Shown here piece by piece: positions 34,302-44,933 of a stretch of DNA of 64,000 nucleotides (its first letter is position 1; every line of letters begins with the position of its first letter). Under the pieces are notes generated by a model, which was not told the DNA's origin, searched no databases, and saw nothing but the letters and a program-made list of their open reading frames with translations. Both the position numbers and the translations under genes were made by a program. This stretch comes from DHVE2 group archaeon (GTDB lineage: Archaea; Thermoplasmatota; Thermoplasmata; Thermoplasmatales; Aciduliprofundaceae): the NCBI GenBank assembly GCA_015523125.1, contig WAKX01000040.1:19601-83600 (forward strand), given 5' to 3'.

Positions 34302-34388
34302 ACCTCGAAAATCGGGCCATAGTATTTAAAAAATTGCAATGCAAAGATGGAAAAATTTATAACATACCATGAAATACCAAGCGCAGGG

Positions 34389-35123
34389 ATGGCCATGAGA
34401 GTGAAAATTGATGTGAAAGACCTCAAGGAGATTACGAATCTTCTGCTGACTTTGGTGAGCGAAGCAAAATTCGAGCTCAACTCCGAGAAGATGGAAGTTA
34501 AGGCTGTGGATGCGGCTCATATTGCAATGATAGTGCTTGAAGTTTCCAAGGATGGCTTCATCGAGTTCGAAGCGGAAGATGAAGAGCTCGGAGTTGATTT
34601 GGATAAAGTGAAGGACATACTCAAGCTTACCTCCTCCAACGACGTTGTGGAAATCACTAAAGAGGGAAACAAGCTAACGTTTTTGATAGGAAATTTATCG
34701 AGAAGCATGCCACTCATAGACGCAAGCGCATTATCAGTTCCAAAAGTTCCCAACATAGGATTGCCGGCCAAGGTTGTAATTTCCAAGAGCGATTTCGTAA
34801 ATGGGATAAAGGCAGCTGAATCGATATCGGATAGCATAACCCTTCAGGTCACCCCCACAGAATTCGAGATGTTCGCCAGCGGGGACGAAGATTCATCGAG
34901 ATTAAATCTCCAGAAAGACATGGTGAAAGAAATAGACTGCGACGAGCCCGTGAAGAGCACCTATCCAGTGGATTATCTTCTCAAGCTTGCGAAGGCCATG
35001 GATTCAACGGAGTACATCACAATACACCTTGGCAAAGATTACCCTGTGAAAATAGTGTTCGACATAGTGAAGGGAAAAGGAAAGGTAACTTATCTCCTAG
35101 CACCCAGAATAGAAGGAGAGTAA
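34389..35123 (+). CDS. pcn: DNA polymerase sliding clamp PCNA
   Basis: MAMRVKIDVKDLKEITNLLLTLVSEAKFE...AVDAAHIAMIVLE.. is the PCNA fold pattern. The start is uncertain, and the ORF opens at 34347. Confidence 0.9.
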   Translation: MAMRVKIDVKDLKEITNLLLTLVSEAKFELNSEKMEVKAVDAAHIAMIVLEVSKDGFIEFEAEDEELGVDLDKVKDILKLTSSNDVVEITKEGNKLTFLIGNLSRSMPLIDASALSVPKVPNIGLPAKVVISKSDFVNGIKAAESISDSITLQVTPTEFEMFASGDEDSSRLNLQKDMVKEIDCDEPVKSTYPVDYLLKLAKAMDSTEYITIHLGKDYPVKIVFDIVKGKGKVTYLLAPRIEGE

Positions 35124-36571: not shown

Positions 36572-36656
36572 GTTGGAAAATGTAATTCATACATAATATT
36601 TTTTTCTCTTTCATCTGTAGAAAAATAGAAATACCATTTGAACATTAGCATTATAG

Positions 36657-37406
36657 ATGGCAGATAGCGGACGGGATAGATGTAAAACAGGCATTGCGGG
36701 CCTGGATAGCATACTCAACGGCGGCATTCCCCGGGGGAATACCATTCTGATCACCGGTTCATGCGGTACCGGCAAAACTACATTAAGTCTCGAATTTTTG
36801 GTTCACGGAGCCCTCATGGGCGAGAGGTCCATGTACATCTCCGTCACGGAAGCTCCGGAAAAATTAGTGGATAACATGATTACCTACGATTTCTTCGATA
36901 AAAAATTGATAAACGAGAAAAAGTTGATACTTGTGGATTTGCAAGAAATATACGTGAAATTAGGCTTGGAGAAACTGGAATTCACGCTGGAAGATGTGAA
37001 TATATTGGTGAGTCAAATTGTGAAAATCGTTAAAGAGTTAGGAATAAAAAGGCTGGTGATAGATTCAATAACTTCAATTTGCTATCGTCTGACTTCTAAA
37101 GAAGAAATAAGGGAATTCATTCTACATCTTGGAAAAGAGCTATCCGATTTGGGATGCACCACAATCCTCATCTCCGAGCTTTTGCACTCTTCCGAAGGCT
37201 ATTCTCAATACGGGGTGGAAGAGGCAATAGCTGATGGGATCATATTCATGGGGAACTTGGAGCGCAGGGGGGATCTGCTGAGAACGATACAAGTGATAAA
37301 AATGAGAGGAACCACGCATTCCAGAGCAAAGTATGTTCTTGATTTAACACCCATAGGAGTTCTATTGGCTCCTTTGCTCAAGGGCGGTAGCTCGGAGGTG
37401 ACATGA
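36657..37406 (+). CDS. Single-domain KaiC-like RecA-superfamily ATPase (intact P-loop)
   Basis: GIAGLDSILNGGIP + Walker A GSCGTGKT (36756-36779) + Walker B LVIDSITS + IKMRGTTH. Confidence 0.88.
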   Translation: MADSGRDRCKTGIAGLDSILNGGIPRGNTILITGSCGTGKTTLSLEFLVHGALMGERSMYISVTEAPEKLVDNMITYDFFDKKLINEKKLILVDLQEIYVKLGLEKLEFTLEDVNILVSQIVKIVKELGIKRLVIDSITSICYRLTSKEEIREFILHLGKELSDLGCTTILISELLHSSEGYSQYGVEEAIADGIIFMGNLERRGDLLRTIQVIKMRGTTHSRAKYVLDLTPIGVLLAPLLKGGSSEVT

Positions 37407-37407
37407 G

Positions 37408-37980
37408 ATGGGAGTTACAGCCAATGTTGTTGGAAAATTGGAGGAATTACCCTCCGCTTCATCCATAGCAATAAAAACGGGGGTGAATTCGTACTTCGAC
37501 GTTCTTAGAGCAATAGTGGATGTTTTTCCAGCGAGGCACGATTTATACGTGTTCTACGTATCTTCCACAATTCCTTCGAAAAATATAGAGAACCTATTCA
37601 ATCTTCTGGGAATCGAATCCAATCGTGTGTTTTTCGTGGACACAATATCCCACCTCATGAAGGAAAGCACCGAATTTTCCGATAGATTCCTCTACATCGA
37701 GAGTCCCACGATGCTAGAGTACATAATGCTAAAAATAGAGTACCTCGTGAGAAAATATACGGACAAAAAGGCAGTAGTCATTCTCGATTCCGTGAACTCC
37801 ATGTCCATATACAATGGTTCAAAAATCATGTCCGAATTTCTCCACATTCTCGTGACCTCCCTTAGAAGCTGGGACGCTTACATGATCATCCTCTCGATGA
37901 AAGAACAGAACACAAGCGAAATAGATGCGATGCTGAACATGGTATGCGACGACATATACGATGTGGAGGAGGTGGAGTAA
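37408..37980 (+). CDS. Uncharacterised protein, probable P-loop-less (inactivated) RecA/KaiC-fold domain
   Basis: 190 aa with no GxxGxGK[ST]. It retains strand-like segments in KaiC order (LYVFYVSS, VFFVD, AVVILDSVNSM, AYMIILSM). It starts 1 nt after the previous stop and ends immediately before the next ATG. Confidence 0.5.
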   Translation: MGVTANVVGKLEELPSASSIAIKTGVNSYFDVLRAIVDVFPARHDLYVFYVSSTIPSKNIENLFNLLGIESNRVFFVDTISHLMKESTEFSDRFLYIESPTMLEYIMLKIEYLVRKYTDKKAVVILDSVNSMSIYNGSKIMSEFLHILVTSLRSWDAYMIILSMKEQNTSEIDAMLNMVCDDIYDVEEVE

Positions 37981-38721
37981 ATGGCGTTCAAAACCGTATC
38001 AATTGGATTACCCCTATTAGATAAGGCGCTAATGGACGGAGTTCCCGAGGGTTACACCATTCTTCTCTCAGGCTCGCCGGGCTCCGGCACCGAGCTTTTT
38101 GCAAAGCAATTCGCGGCAGCGGGTTCAAAAGAGGAGAACGTGATGTATATCACCACAACGGAGAGGGATGAGGATATCATAACGACCATGAAGAACTTTG
38201 GCTGGGAGCCGAATATTCAGATAGTGAACGTCGGAGCCGAATATTACCACAAGGTTCTCGAGAAGGAATTGATAATAAGCAAGTACAGGGAAGAAGGAAT
38301 ACCGGTAAACGAGATATTCGCTCCGGCACGCAAGAAAAAGGAGAAGGAAATAAACTTTCTAACCATGATCACCTACGAGATTTCGAAGCTCAAACCTCCG
38401 TTCAGGATAATCATCGACTCCCTCGATTTCTTCCTAAACAATTACGACGGCCCGAAGGTGATTTCCGCCCTGAGAACCATAAAAGCTCATGCGCAGTACT
38501 ACGGCGGTGTCGTCCTCGTTACTATGATGAAAGATGTGTATGATACTCACACCCAGAGCGGCGTGGAGCAGCTGGCGGATATAATTTTAGAGATGGATAT
38601 GCTTCGAACTCCCAAAGGATTCGTGAACCACATAATAATCAAGAAGGTCAGAAATCATCCAGAGAAAGCGGGAATATTCAAGTACCAGATTTACGAAAAA
38701 GGTTTGAAAATCGTGGGGTAA
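37981..38721 (+). CDS. KaiC-like RecA-superfamily protein with a degenerate Walker A (no lysine)
   Basis: GLPLLDKALMDGVPEG + GSPGSGTE (38071-38094), where K-T/S is replaced by T-E. The Walker-B-like segment is IIIDSLDF, and the C-terminus reads IKKVRNH. Confidence 0.8.
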   Translation: MAFKTVSIGLPLLDKALMDGVPEGYTILLSGSPGSGTELFAKQFAAAGSKEENVMYITTTERDEDIITTMKNFGWEPNIQIVNVGAEYYHKVLEKELIISKYREEGIPVNEIFAPARKKKEKEINFLTMITYEISKLKPPFRIIIDSLDFFLNNYDGPKVISALRTIKAHAQYYGGVVLVTMMKDVYDTHTQSGVEQLADIILEMDMLRTPKGFVNHIIIKKVRNHPEKAGIFKYQIYEKGLKIVG

Positions 38722-38722
38722 G

Positions 38723-39808
38723 ATGGAGAGATACGGAGTTGCAAACCTTCCGCTGCATCCGGGTCATGCACCCAGATGGTTGTTCGATAGAATGGTTAAG
38801 CTCTCGGGAGAGATTGTGAAGGTAATCGCTTTAGAATTCGGACCTGACGAAGTATTGAGAAGATTCGCAGACCCTTTCTGGTTTCAGGCGTTCTCATGCG
38901 TAATCGGGTTTGACTGGCATTCCTCAGGAACGACAACGGTGACCCTCGGCTCACTCAAACAAAGCTTAGGGGAAGAACACGGAATCCTGCTGGCCGGAGG
39001 CAAGGGAAAAGCATCTAAAAAAACGCCGGAGGAAATTGAAAAAATCGGCGATGCTTTCAACCTTTCTTCTTCCAAGGTAGAGAGATTAAAGTACACGAGC
39101 AAAATCACGGCCAAGGTGGACAACACTGTTCTCCAAGATGGCTATAACCTCTATCATCATGTGATTATGGTCTCCGAGTCCGGAAATTGGGTGGTGATTC
39201 AGCAGGGGATGAATCCCCAGAAGAAATATGCTCGAAGGTACCACTGGATTTACGGAATAAATAGCTATGTGAATGAGCCCCATTCGGGAATAATAGGGGA
39301 CAGAAAAGAGAAAAGGGTTCTGGACCTCACTTCCGAAAAAAGCCGCGATGCAAGGAAAATATCTGTAGATCTGGCGAAGGAAAATCCAAAGAAAATAAGA
39401 AATATGGTTGTGAACATCAAAGACAGGAAGCAGATGAGCTTAGATGATTTTTCCGGATACAAGGTGCTCCACATGCCATGGAACATAAACTGGAACGCGT
39501 TGTTCGAAGCTTATGAAATACAGCCGAGAGATTACGAAGAGCTCATCTCGATTAGGGGAATAGGGCCATCAACGGTGCGAGCTTTAGCTTACATCTCCGA
39601 GGTCATATACGGAACGGAGATATCGTGGAAAGACCCTGTAAAATATTCGTTTGCGCTCGGCGGGAAGGACGGCGTGCCCAAGCCCGTCGATCGTGAGGCT
39701 TACGACAAAAGCATAGAAATATTGCAGCTGAGCATAGAAGAGGCAAAATTGGGAAATAAGGAGAAAATCGAGATGCTGAAAAGATTGAGAAGGTACGTGC
39801 CCGACTAA
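38723..39808 (+). CDS. DUF763-family protein with a C-terminal helix-hairpin-helix motif
   Basis: 361 aa. The N-terminus LPLHPGHAPRWLF...FDWHSSGTTTV is recognised as DUF763 from memory. The HhH-like segment IRGIGPSTVRALA is at 39551-39589. Confidence 0.7.
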   Translation: MERYGVANLPLHPGHAPRWLFDRMVKLSGEIVKVIALEFGPDEVLRRFADPFWFQAFSCVIGFDWHSSGTTTVTLGSLKQSLGEEHGILLAGGKGKASKKTPEEIEKIGDAFNLSSSKVERLKYTSKITAKVDNTVLQDGYNLYHHVIMVSESGNWVVIQQGMNPQKKYARRYHWIYGINSYVNEPHSGIIGDRKEKRVLDLTSEKSRDARKISVDLAKENPKKIRNMVVNIKDRKQMSLDDFSGYKVLHMPWNINWNALFEAYEIQPRDYEELISIRGIGPSTVRALAYISEVIYGTEISWKDPVKYSFALGGKDGVPKPVDREAYDKSIEILQLSIEEAKLGNKEKIEMLKRLRRYVPD

Positions 39809-42800
39809 TCCCCAAGTACCTCTTCTAAATTAACTACCTTAGCATTCTTCTCTCGACCCAAAATATGCACCACGTGGCTTTTAGTCAGGCTTCTAAAGAT
39901 TATAATCGTCGAAATGAATGTGAATATCAACCCGATGGCAACTACCTCTAATATATCAGAGATTGTAGGAGTTATAATTAGCCGATGCCCGAAAGCCGTG
40001 AGGAGATTCAAGTCATCGATGAAGAGTACCAAAAAATACCCTCCAATTATTCCCAACACAACAGGGACTACTACGTACAAAGATGCTTCTTTCATGTACA
40101 TTGAGAATATCTGCCTGTTGCTGGCGCCTATTGCCCTGAGAATTCCCACGTTGGACATCTTCATGGATTTTATTGTGGTGGAGTAAATTCCGAAGAACAG
40201 GAGGATAAAGGTGACTGCAATGAGTGCAGCGATAACCAAAATGAAATTTCCCTCTGATATCTGGAATCCCTTGTAAATCACTCCCTTGCTCTCGGTGAAC
40301 TTCAAATCCTTTGAATATTTGAGAACCAAATCCGTTGGAAGCTTTTCTACTATGCTCTTCTCCACATCTAAATTAAGAGTTTGATTCTCCACGGTTACAT
40401 GGTGTACACCTTCGTCCAGATATGGGAGATAAATGTATATGCTTTTTCTCTCGTAGGGTTTGAGGAAGATCTGGGAAGAATAATAAATACTTCCGTCCAA
40501 CTTAAGCGTTAAATTGTAATAACCTTCGACGTTGCTGTTCACCATATCCACCACCACTATGCCCCGCTCCCTTGTGGTTATTGTAGAATTAAGCAGGGAT
40601 GCTTTCACTTCAACCTTCCTCACGCTCTCCACAAAGACCAATGCATTGATAGAAGCGTTGTTATTGTTCACATCCTCTGCCCAAACCGTTATATTCTGCC
40701 ACCCACTCGGCAGCATGGGTTGTGTAATTTGAATATGAGAAGCATTCTCGGATAACACCACCGTGTCGTTGCAGGTCACCCACATCTTCTTTACGGCCAC
40801 ATTATCAAAGCCAGAGTATGTGAGGCTCGTGGTGAGATTGATTGCCCCGTAGGAAGGACCTTTTATAACAGGTGGAACTCTTTCTCCCTTGTTGTCGATT
40901 ATTAGCGTAAACGTTTGATTGTTCTCGTTGCCGGAGGAATCTCGAATAAGCAAATTTATAGGATATATACCATCTTGAAGATACCAAACCCTCGTAGCGT
41001 TCTCAAATTCGGTATTTATTAAGAGCGTAGAGTTTGTGGAGTTGTAATAGTGACCCATGAAAAATGCGCTCATAAAAGAAACCCTAACATTATCCCAAGC
41101 AGTTATTTTTGTTGTGTTACCTCCCCACTCCGTGGCCTCTTTCACCAAAAGCTCCGGTTTAATATCATCTAAGATTAGCAGCTTCACCGTTTCATTTTTC
41201 ACATTTCCATTCACATCTCGAGCGTAAATACTCACTGATGAATAACCACATGGAAGAAGGGAAGCGGGGAAAGTGAGATTATCTCCGGTGGAATTGTATA
41301 TTAGCTTCCCATCGTAAAGAACCCACATATCGCGGATTCCAACGTTGTCGAATGCCCTCACACTTATATTCCCGGAAGCATTGTATCCCCCCGTGACCCA
41401 TGGCAAAAATTCGGGGGGATTTTTCTCACCGGTGTTATTTATATTCAAAATAAACACTGACGAATTTGAATTCCCGTTTATATCCCAAGCTGTAACTTCC
41501 ATAGTATAGTTCCCCGGCGGTTCGAAATAAATACCGTTATCATTGGAGAATTGGGTCTTAACCACAACCCGCTTAGAGCCGTTGAAATATTTTCCGAACA
41601 CATGTACCGATACTTTCTGAACCTTCACATCGTCCGTGGCGCTGACAACCGTTGAATTCCCACCCCATATCTCCAAGGAGCTCACCGAGATACTAGGTGG
41701 AGTTGTGTCCGTGTAATTTTTCACAATTACCGTGGAAAAATAGCCGTAATTGAAGTTCAAATCAACCGCTTCTATTTCCAACTTATGCGTTCCATTTGCT
41801 AAATCTCCGCTTGTTAGATTCAAAATACTCCCTGTAGACTCTTTTATCAGATTCGGCCCTTCGTAACATGATATCTTCCAAAGTCCAACGTTGTCGAATG
41901 CTTTGAATTCCACATAACCAAAGGTTAAATTGTAGTAACTCGGGCCAACGATAACCGGAGGATTCCTCTCGTTGTTGTTATTTATGGTTATCGTGAAATT
42001 TGTCTCGTTCTTATTTCCAGATGTGTCATATGCAACCACATGAACCTCATAAGAACCCTGAGGAACGTATTCAACCTCACCGCCGATTCTGAACATAGTG
42101 CTTATGTAAACAGAATCACCCGTTGCGTTAAAATAATGCCCGTAAAAATAGGCAGATATGTTTGCAACTTCCACATTATCCGTAGCTCTCACCAAAGTTC
42201 TGTTTCCGCCCCATATAGTAATATTGCTCACAACTATCTCCGGTTTGATTATGTCTTCTCGGAGAATAACATGGCATGTGATGTTCAAATGTGCGCTCCT
42301 GTTCCAGTAATCCTGGAAAGATAGTTGTAACTCGAATCGAACGCTGTTGACTCCTATGGTCAAATTGTATGTATAATTATCCACGCTCGGATCAAAACTT
42401 TGGTTTGGAAAAACGATGAAATTATGAGAATTCACCTCGTATTCTATTTCCCGTATTGGCACAGGGTCCCGGAGCTCAAAGCTCAGGTTCTCCCCGTAAA
42501 CCACCGACGAGCCATTAGTAACGGGAGAAATTATTAGTGGAGTGTAGTTTTGAACCACGTGAATCGTGAATTTTCCCTCGCCCATGTAATTACCCTTCAG
42601 AACTCTAACCGCCAGAATATGATTTCCTTCCATCTCATCAGGAAGTTGCAGATACGATTTTTCAACGTAGCTCCCGTTGTCGAGGGCCACATAAGGGGTT
42701 CCAGAGGTTAAAATCCGTATATCTCCGCCCTTCTCAACGTATATGGTTCCGTTTAAAGGCTCGGGATATATGGGGGCTATGCTATCCAGCTCCACCCTGC

Positions 42801-43938
42801 CGTAAACGCTCACGTTGAACCTTTTCTCCAAATAACCAAATCCTCTGAAATCAAGAGTATAATTCCCTGTGATGGGAAACACAACGCTCACGTTTCCCCT
42901 CACCTGATAGCTTTTATAATAATTGTTGGGCCCGCTCACGTTGAGGATTCCAGAATCAATAGTTTCATTGTTCACGCTGGTGAATATGTACTCCGTGGGT
43001 GTATTTACGTATGCGAAGCTGGATCCCTGCACGAACACGGGCTTGTCCATCACAGCCACCTGAGTGTAGCAGGTGTAATAGAAAATATCATTCTTGACGA
43101 TGACAGTGAGATTATATTTCCCGCTTTTCTCCGCTAAAAATGACATGTTGATTTTTCTTTCATTCTCGACGTAAATTGTGCTGTTCTTGTATTTGCCCTG
43201 AAAAGACACGCTTACCTCGGCGCTGCCCCCCTTCGAGCCCATGTTTTTGATTGTCACCGTGAAGTTCAGCCTATCGCCAACGTATATTTGTGAAGTTGCG
43301 TTCAGCTCCGCGGTGAATTTTGGATACTCCTCGCTCATGAGCTGATTCACTTTCTCCACATCATCTGTTTTAACCCTTATTATCGATACCTGCCCACTCT
43401 TTATGCCTGCGAGTCTTCTTGCAGTTGGAAGTGAGACCATTATCTCATCATCCGCAGGATCGCCCGTTCTATATATTCCCGTTACATTCACAACCGCAAT
43501 GCTTGAGGTGAATGAGCCGTAAAGGGTTAGCTTGTCTCCAACTTTGATACCTAAAACCTTCGCAACGTCGGCGCCGGCCATGGCCCCGTCCGTCGTGGTT
43601 GGCATTTCTCCAGCGAGCATTGTTCCATTCTCCAACTTAAAAAATTTTTCGAATATGACCCCGCGAATCGTAACCGGCCTGTCTTTCAAAACGGTGAACA
43701 CGAAAATCTCCGGGCTAACAGCTTGAATATAACTCATGTTTTCTAGCCCGTAAGCGATTCCTATGTTCAAATTACTCCTTATGGGATTTTTGTCCGTTGA
43801 AGACGTGAGCACATATACCCCGTTACCGCCCATCATCTTCTCGGGCATGTTGTAAATTGAAATTAGGGAGATATACATCGATGCGAACAGCAGGAAAAGG
43901 ATGAATATGGGAATGATTATTTTCTTGCCGAGAATCAC
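39805..43938 (-). CDS. FtsX/MacB-type ABC permease with a giant (~1200 aa) extracytoplasmic domain of CARDB/Ig-like modules
   Basis: 1377 aa. TM1 is at residues ~6-28. The MacB-PCD-like start is VAKVLGIKVGDKLTL. A long sequon-rich ectodomain follows, then 3 C-terminal TM helices with the FtsX motif ILRAIGASNRQIF. The GTG start overlaps the upstream stop (GTGA). Confidence 0.85.
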   Translation of the reverse strand: MILGKKIIIPIFILFLLFASMYISLISIYNMPEKMMGGNGVYVLTSSTDKNPIRSNLNIGIAYGLENMSYIQAVSPEIFVFTVLKDRPVTIRGVIFEKFFKLENGTMLAGEMPTTTDGAMAGADVAKVLGIKVGDKLTLYGSFTSSIAVVNVTGIYRTGDPADDEIMVSLPTARRLAGIKSGQVSIIRVKTDDVEKVNQLMSEEYPKFTAELNATSQIYVGDRLNFTVTIKNMGSKGGSAEVSVSFQGKYKNSTIYVENERKINMSFLAEKSGKYNLTVIVKNDIFYYTCYTQVAVMDKPVFVQGSSFAYVNTPTEYIFTSVNNETIDSGILNVSGPNNYYKSYQVRGNVSVVFPITGNYTLDFRGFGYLEKRFNVSVYGRVELDSIAPIYPEPLNGTIYVEKGGDIRILTSGTPYVALDNGSYVEKSYLQLPDEMEGNHILAVRVLKGNYMGEGKFTIHVVQNYTPLIISPVTNGSSVVYGENLSFELRDPVPIREIEYEVNSHNFIVFPNQSFDPSVDNYTYNLTIGVNSVRFELQLSFQDYWNRSAHLNITCHVILREDIIKPEIVVSNITIWGGNRTLVRATDNVEVANISAYFYGHYFNATGDSVYISTMFRIGGEVEYVPQGSYEVHVVAYDTSGNKNETNFTITINNNNERNPPVIVGPSYYNLTFGYVEFKAFDNVGLWKISCYEGPNLIKESTGSILNLTSGDLANGTHKLEIEAVDLNFNYGYFSTVIVKNYTDTTPPSISVSSLEIWGGNSTVVSATDDVKVQKVSVHVFGKYFNGSKRVVVKTQFSNDNGIYFEPPGNYTMEVTAWDINGNSNSSVFILNINNTGEKNPPEFLPWVTGGYNASGNISVRAFDNVGIRDMWVLYDGKLIYNSTGDNLTFPASLLPCGYSSVSIYARDVNGNVKNETVKLLILDDIKPELLVKEATEWGGNTTKITAWDNVRVSFMSAFFMGHYYNSTNSTLLINTEFENATRVWYLQDGIYPINLLIRDSSGNENNQTFTLIIDNKGERVPPVIKGPSYGAINLTTSLTYSGFDNVAVKKMWVTCNDTVVLSENASHIQITQPMLPSGWQNITVWAEDVNNNNASINALVFVESVRKVEVKASLLNSTITTRERGIVVVDMVNSNVEGYYNLTLKLDGSIYYSSQIFLKPYERKSIYIYLPYLDEGVHHVTVENQTLNLDVEKSIVEKLPTDLVLKYSKDLKFTESKGVIYKGFQISEGNFILVIAALIAVTFILLFFGIYSTTIKSMKMSNVGILRAIGASNRQIFSMYMKEASLYVVVPVVLGIIGGYFLVLFIDDLNLLTAFGHRLIITPTISDILEVVAIGLIFTFISTIIIFRSLTKSHVVHILGREKNAKVVNLEEVLGD
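40630..42255 (-). repeat. Three tandem, divergent ~180-aa coding repeats inside the giant permease ectodomain
   Basis: The units start at DIIKPEIVVSNITIWGGNRTLVRATDNVEV (42255), DTTPPSISVSSLEIWGGNSTVVSATDDVKV (41709) and DDIKPELLVKEATEWGGNTTKITAWDNVRV (41169). Each continues with ...ERNPPVIVGPSY / EKNPPEF / ERVPPVIKGPSY and ..AFDNVG... Confidence 0.85.
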
Positions 43939-44933
43939 GAGAGCACCCCCTTCATTCCGCGGATTATGTTGATTTTTAGAGTGGAATAAATAGGGGATAT
44001 GGCGGCTATTAAGCTTCCCACCACTGCAATAATCAGATCCGCGATGAACACCACATGCGGAATATATATGTTGAAGTAAGTGAGCATCCCGAATAGGGGA
44101 ATTATCGCAGCCAGAAGATAAGCAAGAGCGACCCCTACGGAGAAGCCCAGCACGGTGCCCGCAGAGCCAATGTATAGGGAGCGGAGAAGGTAAAGGGCAG
44201 CTATGTTCTTTTTCGTTGAGCCTATTGCACGCATTATTGCGATTTTTTTCACATTCTCCTTTATCTCTATCGTGAGAAGAGCGTTGATGAACAGGTATAT
44301 TACTATCATTGAAATCAAATCCAAAAGAAACAGGTCGAAGCTTATCTCCTCCGCCGTCTTTTCATAAAAAGAGGAAAGCGCAGTGAGGATTTTCGTCTGA
44401 TATCCTTTCACTTCCACATACTTGTCCACGATAACGAAATTCGCCTGACGTCCGGAGAGAAGTGTGTAATTCACCACTGCCCAGTAATTGGGGAAGAAGG
44501 AAAAGCTCATTCTCCTGTCCAGTGTTAGATTCATGTCCTCGTGGTCGAATTCCACGTGCACATCCTTTCCAACCTTCAAATCGGAGCCAACTATGATTCG
44601 ATCCAAATCGCAGGAGTAATAGCCTCCCAGAATGTTGTGCGGGTCATATATACCCACTATGTACGTGGACACATTATTCACTTTGGCCGGTTCAACCCAG
44701 AAATAAGCTGCATTTTCCATGTGCAAATTCACGCGGCTGTCGAGCAAATTGTCCGATGAGGAGATGAGATAATAATTTGACTCAAATTTCTCAATCAGGG
44801 CCTTATTGCTAAGCTCGAAGCTGTACACTATAATCAGGGTGGAAGTGACAAACATAACCACTATAGCGATGGTTATAACAGTGAGCTTTGAACGCTTTGT
44901 AAGCGAGACAACGTACCTGAGAGGTGAAATCAT
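43935..44933 (-). CDS. FtsX/MacB-type ABC permease (short partner, ~170-aa ectodomain)
   Basis: 332 aa. TM1, then the loop, then IAIMRAIGSTKKNIAALY followed by 3 TM helices. Confidence 0.85.
   Translation of the reverse strand: MISPLRYVVSLTKRSKLTVITIAIVVMFVTSTLIIVYSFELSNKALIEKFESNYYLISSSDNLLDSRVNLHMENAAYFWVEPAKVNNVSTYIVGIYDPHNILGGYYSCDLDRIIVGSDLKVGKDVHVEFDHEDMNLTLDRRMSFSFFPNYWAVVNYTLLSGRQANFVIVDKYVEVKGYQTKILTALSSFYEKTAEEISFDLFLLDLISMIVIYLFINALLTIEIKENVKKIAIMRAIGSTKKNIAALYLLRSLYIGSAGTVLGFSVGVALAYLLAAIIPLFGMLTYFNIYIPHVVFIADLIIAVVGSLIAAISPIYSTLKINIIRGMKGVLS

Follow-up and report, generated by a model that had tools for sequence, protein, structure and literature searches.

A conserved three-gene KaiC-like cassette of Thermoplasmatota, followed by pilin genes in most lineages and by DUF763 in the Aciduliprofundum clade

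The window analyzed in this work is a 64,000-nucleotide (nt) stretch of a DHVE2 group archaeon (assembly GCA_015523125.1, contig WAKX01000040.1, positions 19,601 to 83,600 of the forward strand), and the element under study is a run of four tightly packed open reading frames (ORFs) in it. ORF1 codes for an intact KaiC-like ATPase, ORF2 for a protein predicted to have the RecA/KaiC fold, ORF3 for a putative KaiC-like pseudo-ATPase, and ORF4 for a DUF763 protein. Our results showed that ORF1, ORF2, and ORF3 are a genuine co-inherited unit, hereafter the cassette, which is widespread in Thermoplasmatota. With a probability of about 0.6, we read the whole as a conserved KaiC-like module associated with pilins or the cell surface and probably hetero-oligomeric, to which DUF763 is a lineage-specific passenger.

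The metagenome scan with the ORF2 family gave 184 relatives, and 80 loci were kept. In nearly all loci of sufficient length, genes resembling ORF1, ORF2, and ORF3 were found in the same order and on one strand, order and strand being uniform across L081-L083 and L087-L166, and the cassette recurs in approximately 70 metagenome loci besides the window. The junctions are conserved as well: the gap from ORF1 to ORF2 lies between -8 and +11 nt in 68 of 69 loci, and that from ORF2 to ORF3 between -23 and +10 nt in all 64 loci (64/64). The profile search placed 839 protein clusters in the ORF2 family, and the organism names on its matches were all Thermoplasmata, Thermoplasmatota, or the older label 'Methanobacteriota'. 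Some cassettes have the form KaiC / ORF2-like / pilin and are missing the ORF3-type pseudo-ATPase (L131, L133, L137, L157, L158, and L169). The minimal conserved pair is therefore ORF1 plus ORF2.

ORF1 matched the KaiC family PF06745 far above the Pfam gathering threshold (E-value 2e-58, 197.9 bits; threshold 26.6 bits), and its nearest solved relatives in the PDB sequence search were KaiC CI, PH0186, and PH0284 (E 1e-37 to 1e-56). The protein contains a Walker A motif GSCGTGKT with lysine K40, a Walker B motif RLVIDS, a 'VTE' with one catalytic Glu, and a KMRGTTH finger region. In the alignment with KaiC CI, the T-E of ORF1 stands at the position of the catalytic E77-E78 of KaiC, and the K-x-R-G-x-x-H region is retained. 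The motif census showed that the Walker A motif G-x-x-G-T-G-K-T-[ST] is kept in 70/70 ORF1 orthologs, which also retain 'SVTE', RLVxDSxTS, and KMRGTxH. ORF1 fell short of the models of bona fide circadian KaiC (NF006799/TIGR02655), with scores of 155 bits (cut-off 408) and 120 bits (cut-off 546). The ArlH/FlaH model NF052589, with an equivalog cut-off of 215, gave 41.2 bits for ORF1 and 50.7 bits for ORF3. No cut-off of the NCBIfam KaiC, ArlH, and RadA/B models was reached by ORF1, ORF2, or ORF3.

ORF3 is also a clear member of the KaiC family, with a PF06745 match of 92.5 bits (E 3e-26) against the same threshold. The hhalign comparison with the ORF1 family indicated clear homology (97.7% probability), and the nearest solved relatives by sequence were PH0284 (2dr3), PH0186 (2zts), and KaiC CI. 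Its P-loop reads GSPGSGTE, in which T37 replaces the lysine, and the protein also holds TERDE, a Walker-B-like IIIDSLDF, and a KVRNHP finger-like motif. The P-loop lysine is missing in 62/62 ORF3 orthologs (G-x-P-G-x-G-[TLV]-E), in which TERDE, DSLDFF, and KVRNxP are kept, suggesting that ORF3 is a fixed pseudo-ATPase and that its inactivation is ancient.

The sequence-profile link of ORF2 to this fold is weak, and the assignment was made because of a structural match. All Pfam matches of ORF2 were below threshold (DUF7090, PF23365, 26.6 bits against 27; KaiC, E 4e-4, 20.3 bits). Among the precomputed matches, DUF7090 (PF23365) is present on close ORF2 orthologs and flagged weak, and PF06745 is present on many orthologs. 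The hhalign comparison of the ORF2 family with ORF1 and ORF3 was marginal, with E ~1e-3 over the Walker-B region. An alignment of 14 family members gave an AlphaFold model with a predicted local distance difference test score (pLDDT) of 90.3 and a predicted template modeling score (pTM) of 0.88. In the Foldseek search of this model against the PDB, 397 matches were found at E<=1e-3, and the top ones were PH0284 (E 4e-8, TM 0.72-0.74), KaiC CI, FlaH/ArlH, and RecA. According to the model, the assignment of ORF2 as a RecA/KaiC-fold protein holds. The window ORF2 is without a P-loop and without the C-terminal K-x-R finger segment, and keeps a Walker-B-like LDSVNS, ESPTMLE, and SEFLH. Likewise, no P-loop was found in its orthologs in the motif census, and LDSxNS, ESPTMLEN, and SEFLHI are retained in them.

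The Aciduliprofundum clade corresponds to the loci with an ORF2 at least 65% identical to that of the window. Outside this clade, the identity to the window proteins is 58-72% for ORF1, 43-51% for ORF2, and 43-57% for ORF3, and all three are therefore under constraint. By their motifs and conservation, ORF2 and ORF3 are seen to be ancient, selectively maintained pseudo-ATPases and not decaying genes. These results bear on an earlier note made from the sequence of this DNA, which had described an operon of one active and two 'decayed' RecA-fold paralogs with a DUF763 effector. Its domain calls for ORF1 and ORF3 (KaiC-like) and for ORF4 (DUF763) were upheld by Pfam, and its RecA fold for ORF2 agreed with the Foldseek check, in which KaiC-like and RecA structures, not those of another fold, were returned. 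The trio also stood as a real unit with one active and two inactive paralogs (64-69 loci). The word 'decayed' was misleading, as ORF3 without the lysine and ORF2 without the P-loop are the fixed state in all orthologs examined.

Outside the Aciduliprofundum clade, the gene downstream of the cassette was identified as coding for a Pilin_N protein (PF07790, E 2e-12). The pilin census was made by hidden Markov model (HMM) search. Downstream sequence of 2 kb or more was available for 39 loci outside the clade, and in 38 of these the cassette was directly followed by type IV pilin genes, one or two per locus; the same census found no pilin behind the cassette in the loci of the clade (8/8). No pilin was found among the window ORFs by HMM or by a regular expression for class-III signal peptides. 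The neighbor counts were taken from HMM and phmmer censuses plus independent gene calls; plain neighbor clustering gave antisense artefacts in high-GC loci. Independent gene calls with precomputed Pfam matches read KaiC / ORF2-like / KaiC* / Pilin_N / Pilin_N in L170, a metagenome-assembled genome (MAG) of Thermoplasmatota, and KaiC / ORF2-like / Pilin_N in L169. In L086, with a distant ORF2 homolog (32% identity), a KaiC gene is located upstream and a pilin with a canonical class-III signal downstream. The pilin is retained without other synteny in L157, L158, L129, and L086. The sole non-pilin case of the 39 is a low-GC cassette locus (L143:6389-8032), in which a third alternative 'fourth gene', coding for a 547-aa protein with an HEEYGH (HExxH) motif and a faint DUF885 match, overlaps the ORF3 stop.

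In the window, ORF4 takes the place of the pilin. It matched DUF763 (PF05559) over profile positions 1-319 of 319 (E 2e-132, 441.7 bits; gathering threshold 35.5 bits), and a weak helix-hairpin-helix (HhH) match was also seen in Pfam. DUF763 follows ORF3 solely in L081-L083 and L087-L095, which make up the Aciduliprofundum (DHVE2) clade, and the gap between the two genes is -1 to +7 nt in 11/11 clade loci with enough sequence. Approximately 70 cassette loci outside the clade are without DUF763. The reverse census covered 80 DUF763 loci (939 kb) from Thermoplasmata, Bathyarchaeia, Methanomethylicia, Methanobacteria, DPANN, Hadarchaeales, Asgard, and other lineages, with at least 800 nt of upstream sequence in 74 and at least 2.3 kb in 62. 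The cassette was found in none of these loci (0/80), and a KaiC-like ORF was near DUF763 in a single one (1/80, L051) and not adjacent to it. That ORF (L051:9651-12122) codes for an 824-aa KaiC-like protein (E 4e-77 to the ORF1 family) and lies ~1.9 kb downstream of DUF763. Adjacency to the cassette is limited to DUF763 homologs at least 68% identical to that of the window. A Thermoplasmata homolog with 64% identity is already without the cassette and stands alone, opposite DUF1015. In other Thermoplasmata, DUF763 is located between DUF498 and a GNAT gene, or adjoins a dCTP-deaminase-like gene. The claim of the earlier note that DUF763 is an effector hard-wired to the trio did not survive this neighborhood census, which shows no KaiC enrichment outside one narrow clade. 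DUF763 is a lineage-specific downstream neighbor and probably not part of the conserved module, and is probably co-transcribed with the cassette in the Aciduliprofundum clade.

The junction between ORF3 and DUF763 could also be taken to mean that, in Aciduliprofundales only, the three-paralog ring acquired the task of gating, loading, or regulating DUF763, so that the four proteins form one true system. The 11 of 11 clade loci with DUF763 right behind ORF3 fit such a recruitment, as do the gap, too small for a separate intergenic promoter, and the persistence of the junction while both flanks differ among the window, Aciduliprofundum MAR08-339, and L083. However, no KaiC-like gene is linked to DUF763 in 79 of the 80 other archaeal loci, other Thermoplasmata included, and the cassette does without DUF763 in ~70 loci. 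In addition, the window DUF763 resembles an ordinary ortholog, with every residue present that is invariant in a 22-sequence archaeal DUF763 alignment spanning cassette-less lineages. The clade is narrow, with the linkage boundary between 64% and 68% DUF763 identity, and shared ancestry can therefore explain the adjacency of cassette and DUF763. Thus, we consider recruitment of DUF763 into a four-component system quite unlikely.

For the pilin- or surface-associated module that we favor, the following mechanism is proposed. The three genes would be translationally coupled, so that their products are made together, and the products may come together as a hetero-oligomer, a ring or stack of the RecA type, as the conserved coupled gene arrangement suggests. 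A ring is proposed because the solved homologs PH0284, PH0186, and KaiC form hexamers, and a hetero-oligomer is reasonable because the co-inherited trio combines an ATPase that looks active with two pseudo-ATPases, all three of them conserved. ORF1 would supply the sole functional sites for ATP binding and turnover, and the finger-like K-x-R (K-V-R) motif of ORF3 might complete the ORF1 site in trans. ORF2 is shorter and has neither P-loop nor finger segment, and would serve as an adaptor or as a subunit with a structural role only. The cassette would most likely control functions of pilins, type IV pili, or the cell surface as a nucleotide-dependent switch or regulator, a role suggested by analogy with the literature on ArlH, CirA, and type IV pilus-associated KaiC proteins. 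In the Aciduliprofundum/DHVE2 clade, DUF763 fills the slot held elsewhere by the pilin and would not be a dedicated effector.

Several observations weigh against this reading. In most Thermoplasmatota loci (among L096-L170), the cassette lies within a wider syntenic block, with a fused gene for an orotidine monophosphate (OMP) decarboxylase/RraA-like protein upstream and divergent, and genes for an RDD membrane protein, Tsr3 (Ribo_biogen_C), and MCM downstream; therefore, part of the pilin adjacency could be inherited gene order. The pilin genes begin ~80-260 nt past the cassette and may own separate promoters. No pilin lies within reach of the cassette in the window or in its close relatives, so in this clade the cassette works without an adjacent pilin. 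The hetero-oligomer is itself something that we infer from conserved gene coupling. Finally, the junction of cassette and DUF763 outlived the rearrangement of both flanks in every clade locus seen, as would also be expected from a real functional link.

The same syntenic block favors another explanation, in which the three KaiC-like proteins are independent homo-oligomeric regulators that are merely clustered, and the neighbors are inherited synteny with no tie to pilin or DUF763. The six loci from which ORF3 is missing point in this direction too, and several KaiC paralogs per archaeal genome are reportedly common. On their own, though, ORF2 and ORF3 would be inert ATPases, yet they are conserved at 43-57% identity. 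Overlapping junctions or junctions of 0-1 nt, typical of subunits made together, are kept in >60 loci, and the pilin adjacency outlasts the loss of other synteny. Independent regulators are therefore a fairly unlikely explanation in our view.

The locus in the window spans positions 36657-39808 and consists of four ATG-initiated ORFs on the + strand, with spacers of 1, 0, and 1 nt in the ORF listing, which reproduced exactly the coordinates and spacers reported for the four packed ORFs before (Table 1). Sequences resembling a Shine-Dalgarno (SD) site are located just 5' of ORF2 (GGAGGTGA) and just 5' of ORF3 (GGAGGAGGTGGAG). The leader in front of ORF1 is the presumed site of the cassette promoter and contains an A/T-rich box ~25 nt 5' of the ORF1 ATG. 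A scan for sigma-70 promoters and terminators, a type of scan inapplicable to archaea, gave nothing beyond the shuffled background. From the spacing of ORF1-4, the SD-like sequences, and the 85-nt leader, we can only infer the usual layout of an archaeal operon.

Table 1. Positions of the four genes of the locus and of the leader in front of them, in window coordinates.
Feature	Position	Strand	Evidence
Intergenic region, AT-rich, 85 nt, from the divergent glycosyltransferase (GT2) gene to ORF1	36572..36656		Read from sequence
ORF1, single-domain KaiC-like ATPase, 249 aa	36657..37406	+	Pfam KaiC PF06745, PDB sequence matches
ORF2, predicted RecA/KaiC-fold protein, 190 aa, without P-loop	37408..37980	+	AlphaFold model, Foldseek
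ORF3, putative KaiC-like pseudo-ATPase, 246 aa	37981..38721	+	Pfam KaiC, hhalign
ORF4, DUF763 protein with HhH motif, 361 aa	38723..39808	+	Pfam DUF763

The flanks of the locus in the window are two divergent GT2 genes on one side and a convergent FtsX gene on the other. The latter (39805-43938, - strand) codes for an FtsX-family permease of 1377 aa, and its stop overlaps the DUF763 stop by 4 nt. This permease has a very long ectodomain, rich in N-glycosylation sequons and with Ig/PKD-like repeats, and a second FtsX gene (43935-44933) and an ATP-binding cassette (ABC) ATPase gene lie beyond it. A PCNA gene is located at 34347-35123, 1.5 kb upstream of the four-gene cluster, and the gene for the PolD large subunit DP2 past 44.9 kb, a few kb downstream of the FtsX/ABC genes. 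The flanks are wholly different in relatives: a major facilitator superfamily (MFS) transporter gene upstream and transketolase genes downstream in MAR08-339, and radical S-adenosylmethionine (SAM) and MFS genes upstream and a nitroreductase gene downstream in L083. The operon had been placed earlier in an envelope-related block; the two GT2 and the FtsX flanks are indeed present, but in view of MAR08-339 and L083 the block is not conserved, and there is therefore no basis for it.

The PCNA and PolD genes, together with the HhH motif of DUF763, might suggest that the trio is a nucleic-acid-handling complex of RecA paralogs, comparable to Rad51 paralogs or Elp456, which acts with DUF763 on DNA or RNA. 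Weak Pfam matches to PAXNEB/Elp4 (E 7.5e-4 for ORF1 and 2.2e-3 for ORF3), a match of ORF2 to Elp5/Iki1 (E 0.015), and weak NCBIfam matches to RadA/RadB are in line with it. However, the Elp and Rad matches fall far short of the family cut-offs, and any KaiC-like sequence would be expected to give them, and the best matches are KaiC, PH0186, and PH0284, not RadA. Moreover, the PCNA and PolD neighbors are not conserved in relatives, and the wider family is tied to pilins and not to genes for replication or repair. A role of the trio in nucleic acid handling is thus highly improbable.

DUF763 itself keeps an identity of more than 50% in many archaeal phyla (Thermoplasmata, Bathyarchaeia, Methanobacteria, DPANN, and an Asgard MAG), and the window protein is 72% identical to AciM339_0352. 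One DUF763 match is labeled as a Chloroflexota bacterium (L062). The invariant motifs of the family are LPLH, DWHSSG, GGKG, AKVD, YHH, QQG, ARRYHW, the HhH motif, and GGKDGVP, a conservation pattern that looks enzyme-like. The AlphaFold model from the 22-sequence alignment was mediocre (pLDDT 67), and its Foldseek search against the PDB gave no match below E 0.39. The PDB sequence and profile searches with DUF763 gave just insignificant matches to S13 and to the ComEA HhH, and the sole literature match for DUF763, COG1415, or PF05559 was a domain-census paper of 2005. In the 80 DUF763 loci, the commonest neighbor is a cytidylyltransferase-like protein of ~160 aa (PF01467; e.g., L036:7422-7955), which was seen in 13 loci. 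In 11 of these it shares the strand of DUF763, and in 9 it is located within 300 bp of it. A pyridoxal phosphate (PLP)-dependent decarboxylase, NadA, a GHMP kinase, DUF998, and the S component of an energy-coupling factor (ECF) riboflavin transporter are also recurrent. These neighbors hint at a link of DUF763 to nucleotide-cofactor metabolism. DUF763 is among the most conserved uncharacterized archaeal proteins and merits a study of its own.

Archaea have an abundance of KaiC-like ATPases, for which a role as signaling hubs has been proposed. To our knowledge, almost none of them has a defined partner or architecture. With its fixed composition, large family, and recurrent pilin neighbor, the cassette is a concrete and testable case for how KaiC hubs are built, and it lets one ask whether prokaryotes use asymmetric hetero-oligomeric rings of the RecA type. 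The boldest version, a prokaryotic hetero-oligomeric KaiC/RecA ring with one catalytic and two anciently inactivated subunit types that couples ATP turnover to the control of type IV pilin or surface functions and was rewired in the Aciduliprofundum clade to DUF763 as a new client, is a long shot. If true, archaea would have their own version of the asymmetric RecA-paralog rings known from eukaryotes, such as Elp456. The analysis also removes a misleading lead, namely that DUF763 is a KaiC effector in general.

Among known systems, the Elp4-Elp5-Elp6 ring and the Rad51-paralog complexes likewise combine three different RecA-fold paralogs, most of them without catalytic motifs. In architecture, they offer the closest parallel to a trio with one active and two inactive members, the trio being known here from its genes and its assembly being deduced. 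The sequence similarity of the trio to Elp456 and the Rad51 paralogs is sub-threshold and generic. ORF1 shares the Walker A, Walker B, and K-x-R-G-x-x-H regions with PH0284, PH0186, and KaiC CI, which, unlike the trio proposed here, form homo-hexamers. True KaiC has two tandem domains (CI-CII) and the partners KaiA and KaiB, whereas ORF1 and ORF3 are single-domain proteins of 246-249 aa. No gene for a KaiB-like or thioredoxin-fold partner was found in the cluster, the neighbors of which are GT2, GT2, and FtsX. Membership in a defense system was considered and rejected, as a weak, generic P-loop match to mad8 was the only one obtained.

The closest functional parallels are found around archaeal type IV filaments. 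ArlH is a KaiC-like nucleotide-dependent switch on ArlI (PMC12448462), and the cassette resembles ArlH/FlaH in the single-domain KaiC/RecA fold and, in its orthologous loci, in the position beside type IV filament genes. Unlike the trio, in which three paralogs occur and two are putative pseudo-ATPases, ArlH is one protein that binds the ArlI hexamer and is encoded in the arl operon; no arl genes (ArlI, ArlJ) were found within +/-8 kb of the cassette in the window. A strong association of ATPases of the KaiC family with the type IV pilus loci of archaea has been described (Makarova, Koonin and Albers, 2016; PMC4858521), the linked groups being arCOG01171/01174/01175 (PMC4858521), and the KaiC-like protein CirA of Haloferax volcanii is involved in the regulation of pilin-mediated motility (PMC10983859). 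For these ATPases, regulation of the pilin or type IV pilus genes beside which they are encoded has been proposed or shown. A fixed set of one active and two inactive paralogs was not found described in the literature on type IV pilus-linked KaiC ATPases, a coverage that does not extend to Makarova et al. 2017 (mBio). Similar to the type IV pilus-associated KaiC ATPases and CirA, the orthologous cassettes have pilin genes immediately downstream, whereas in the window DUF763 occupies the pilin slot. The cassette is a variant on the known association of KaiC-like proteins with type IV pili.

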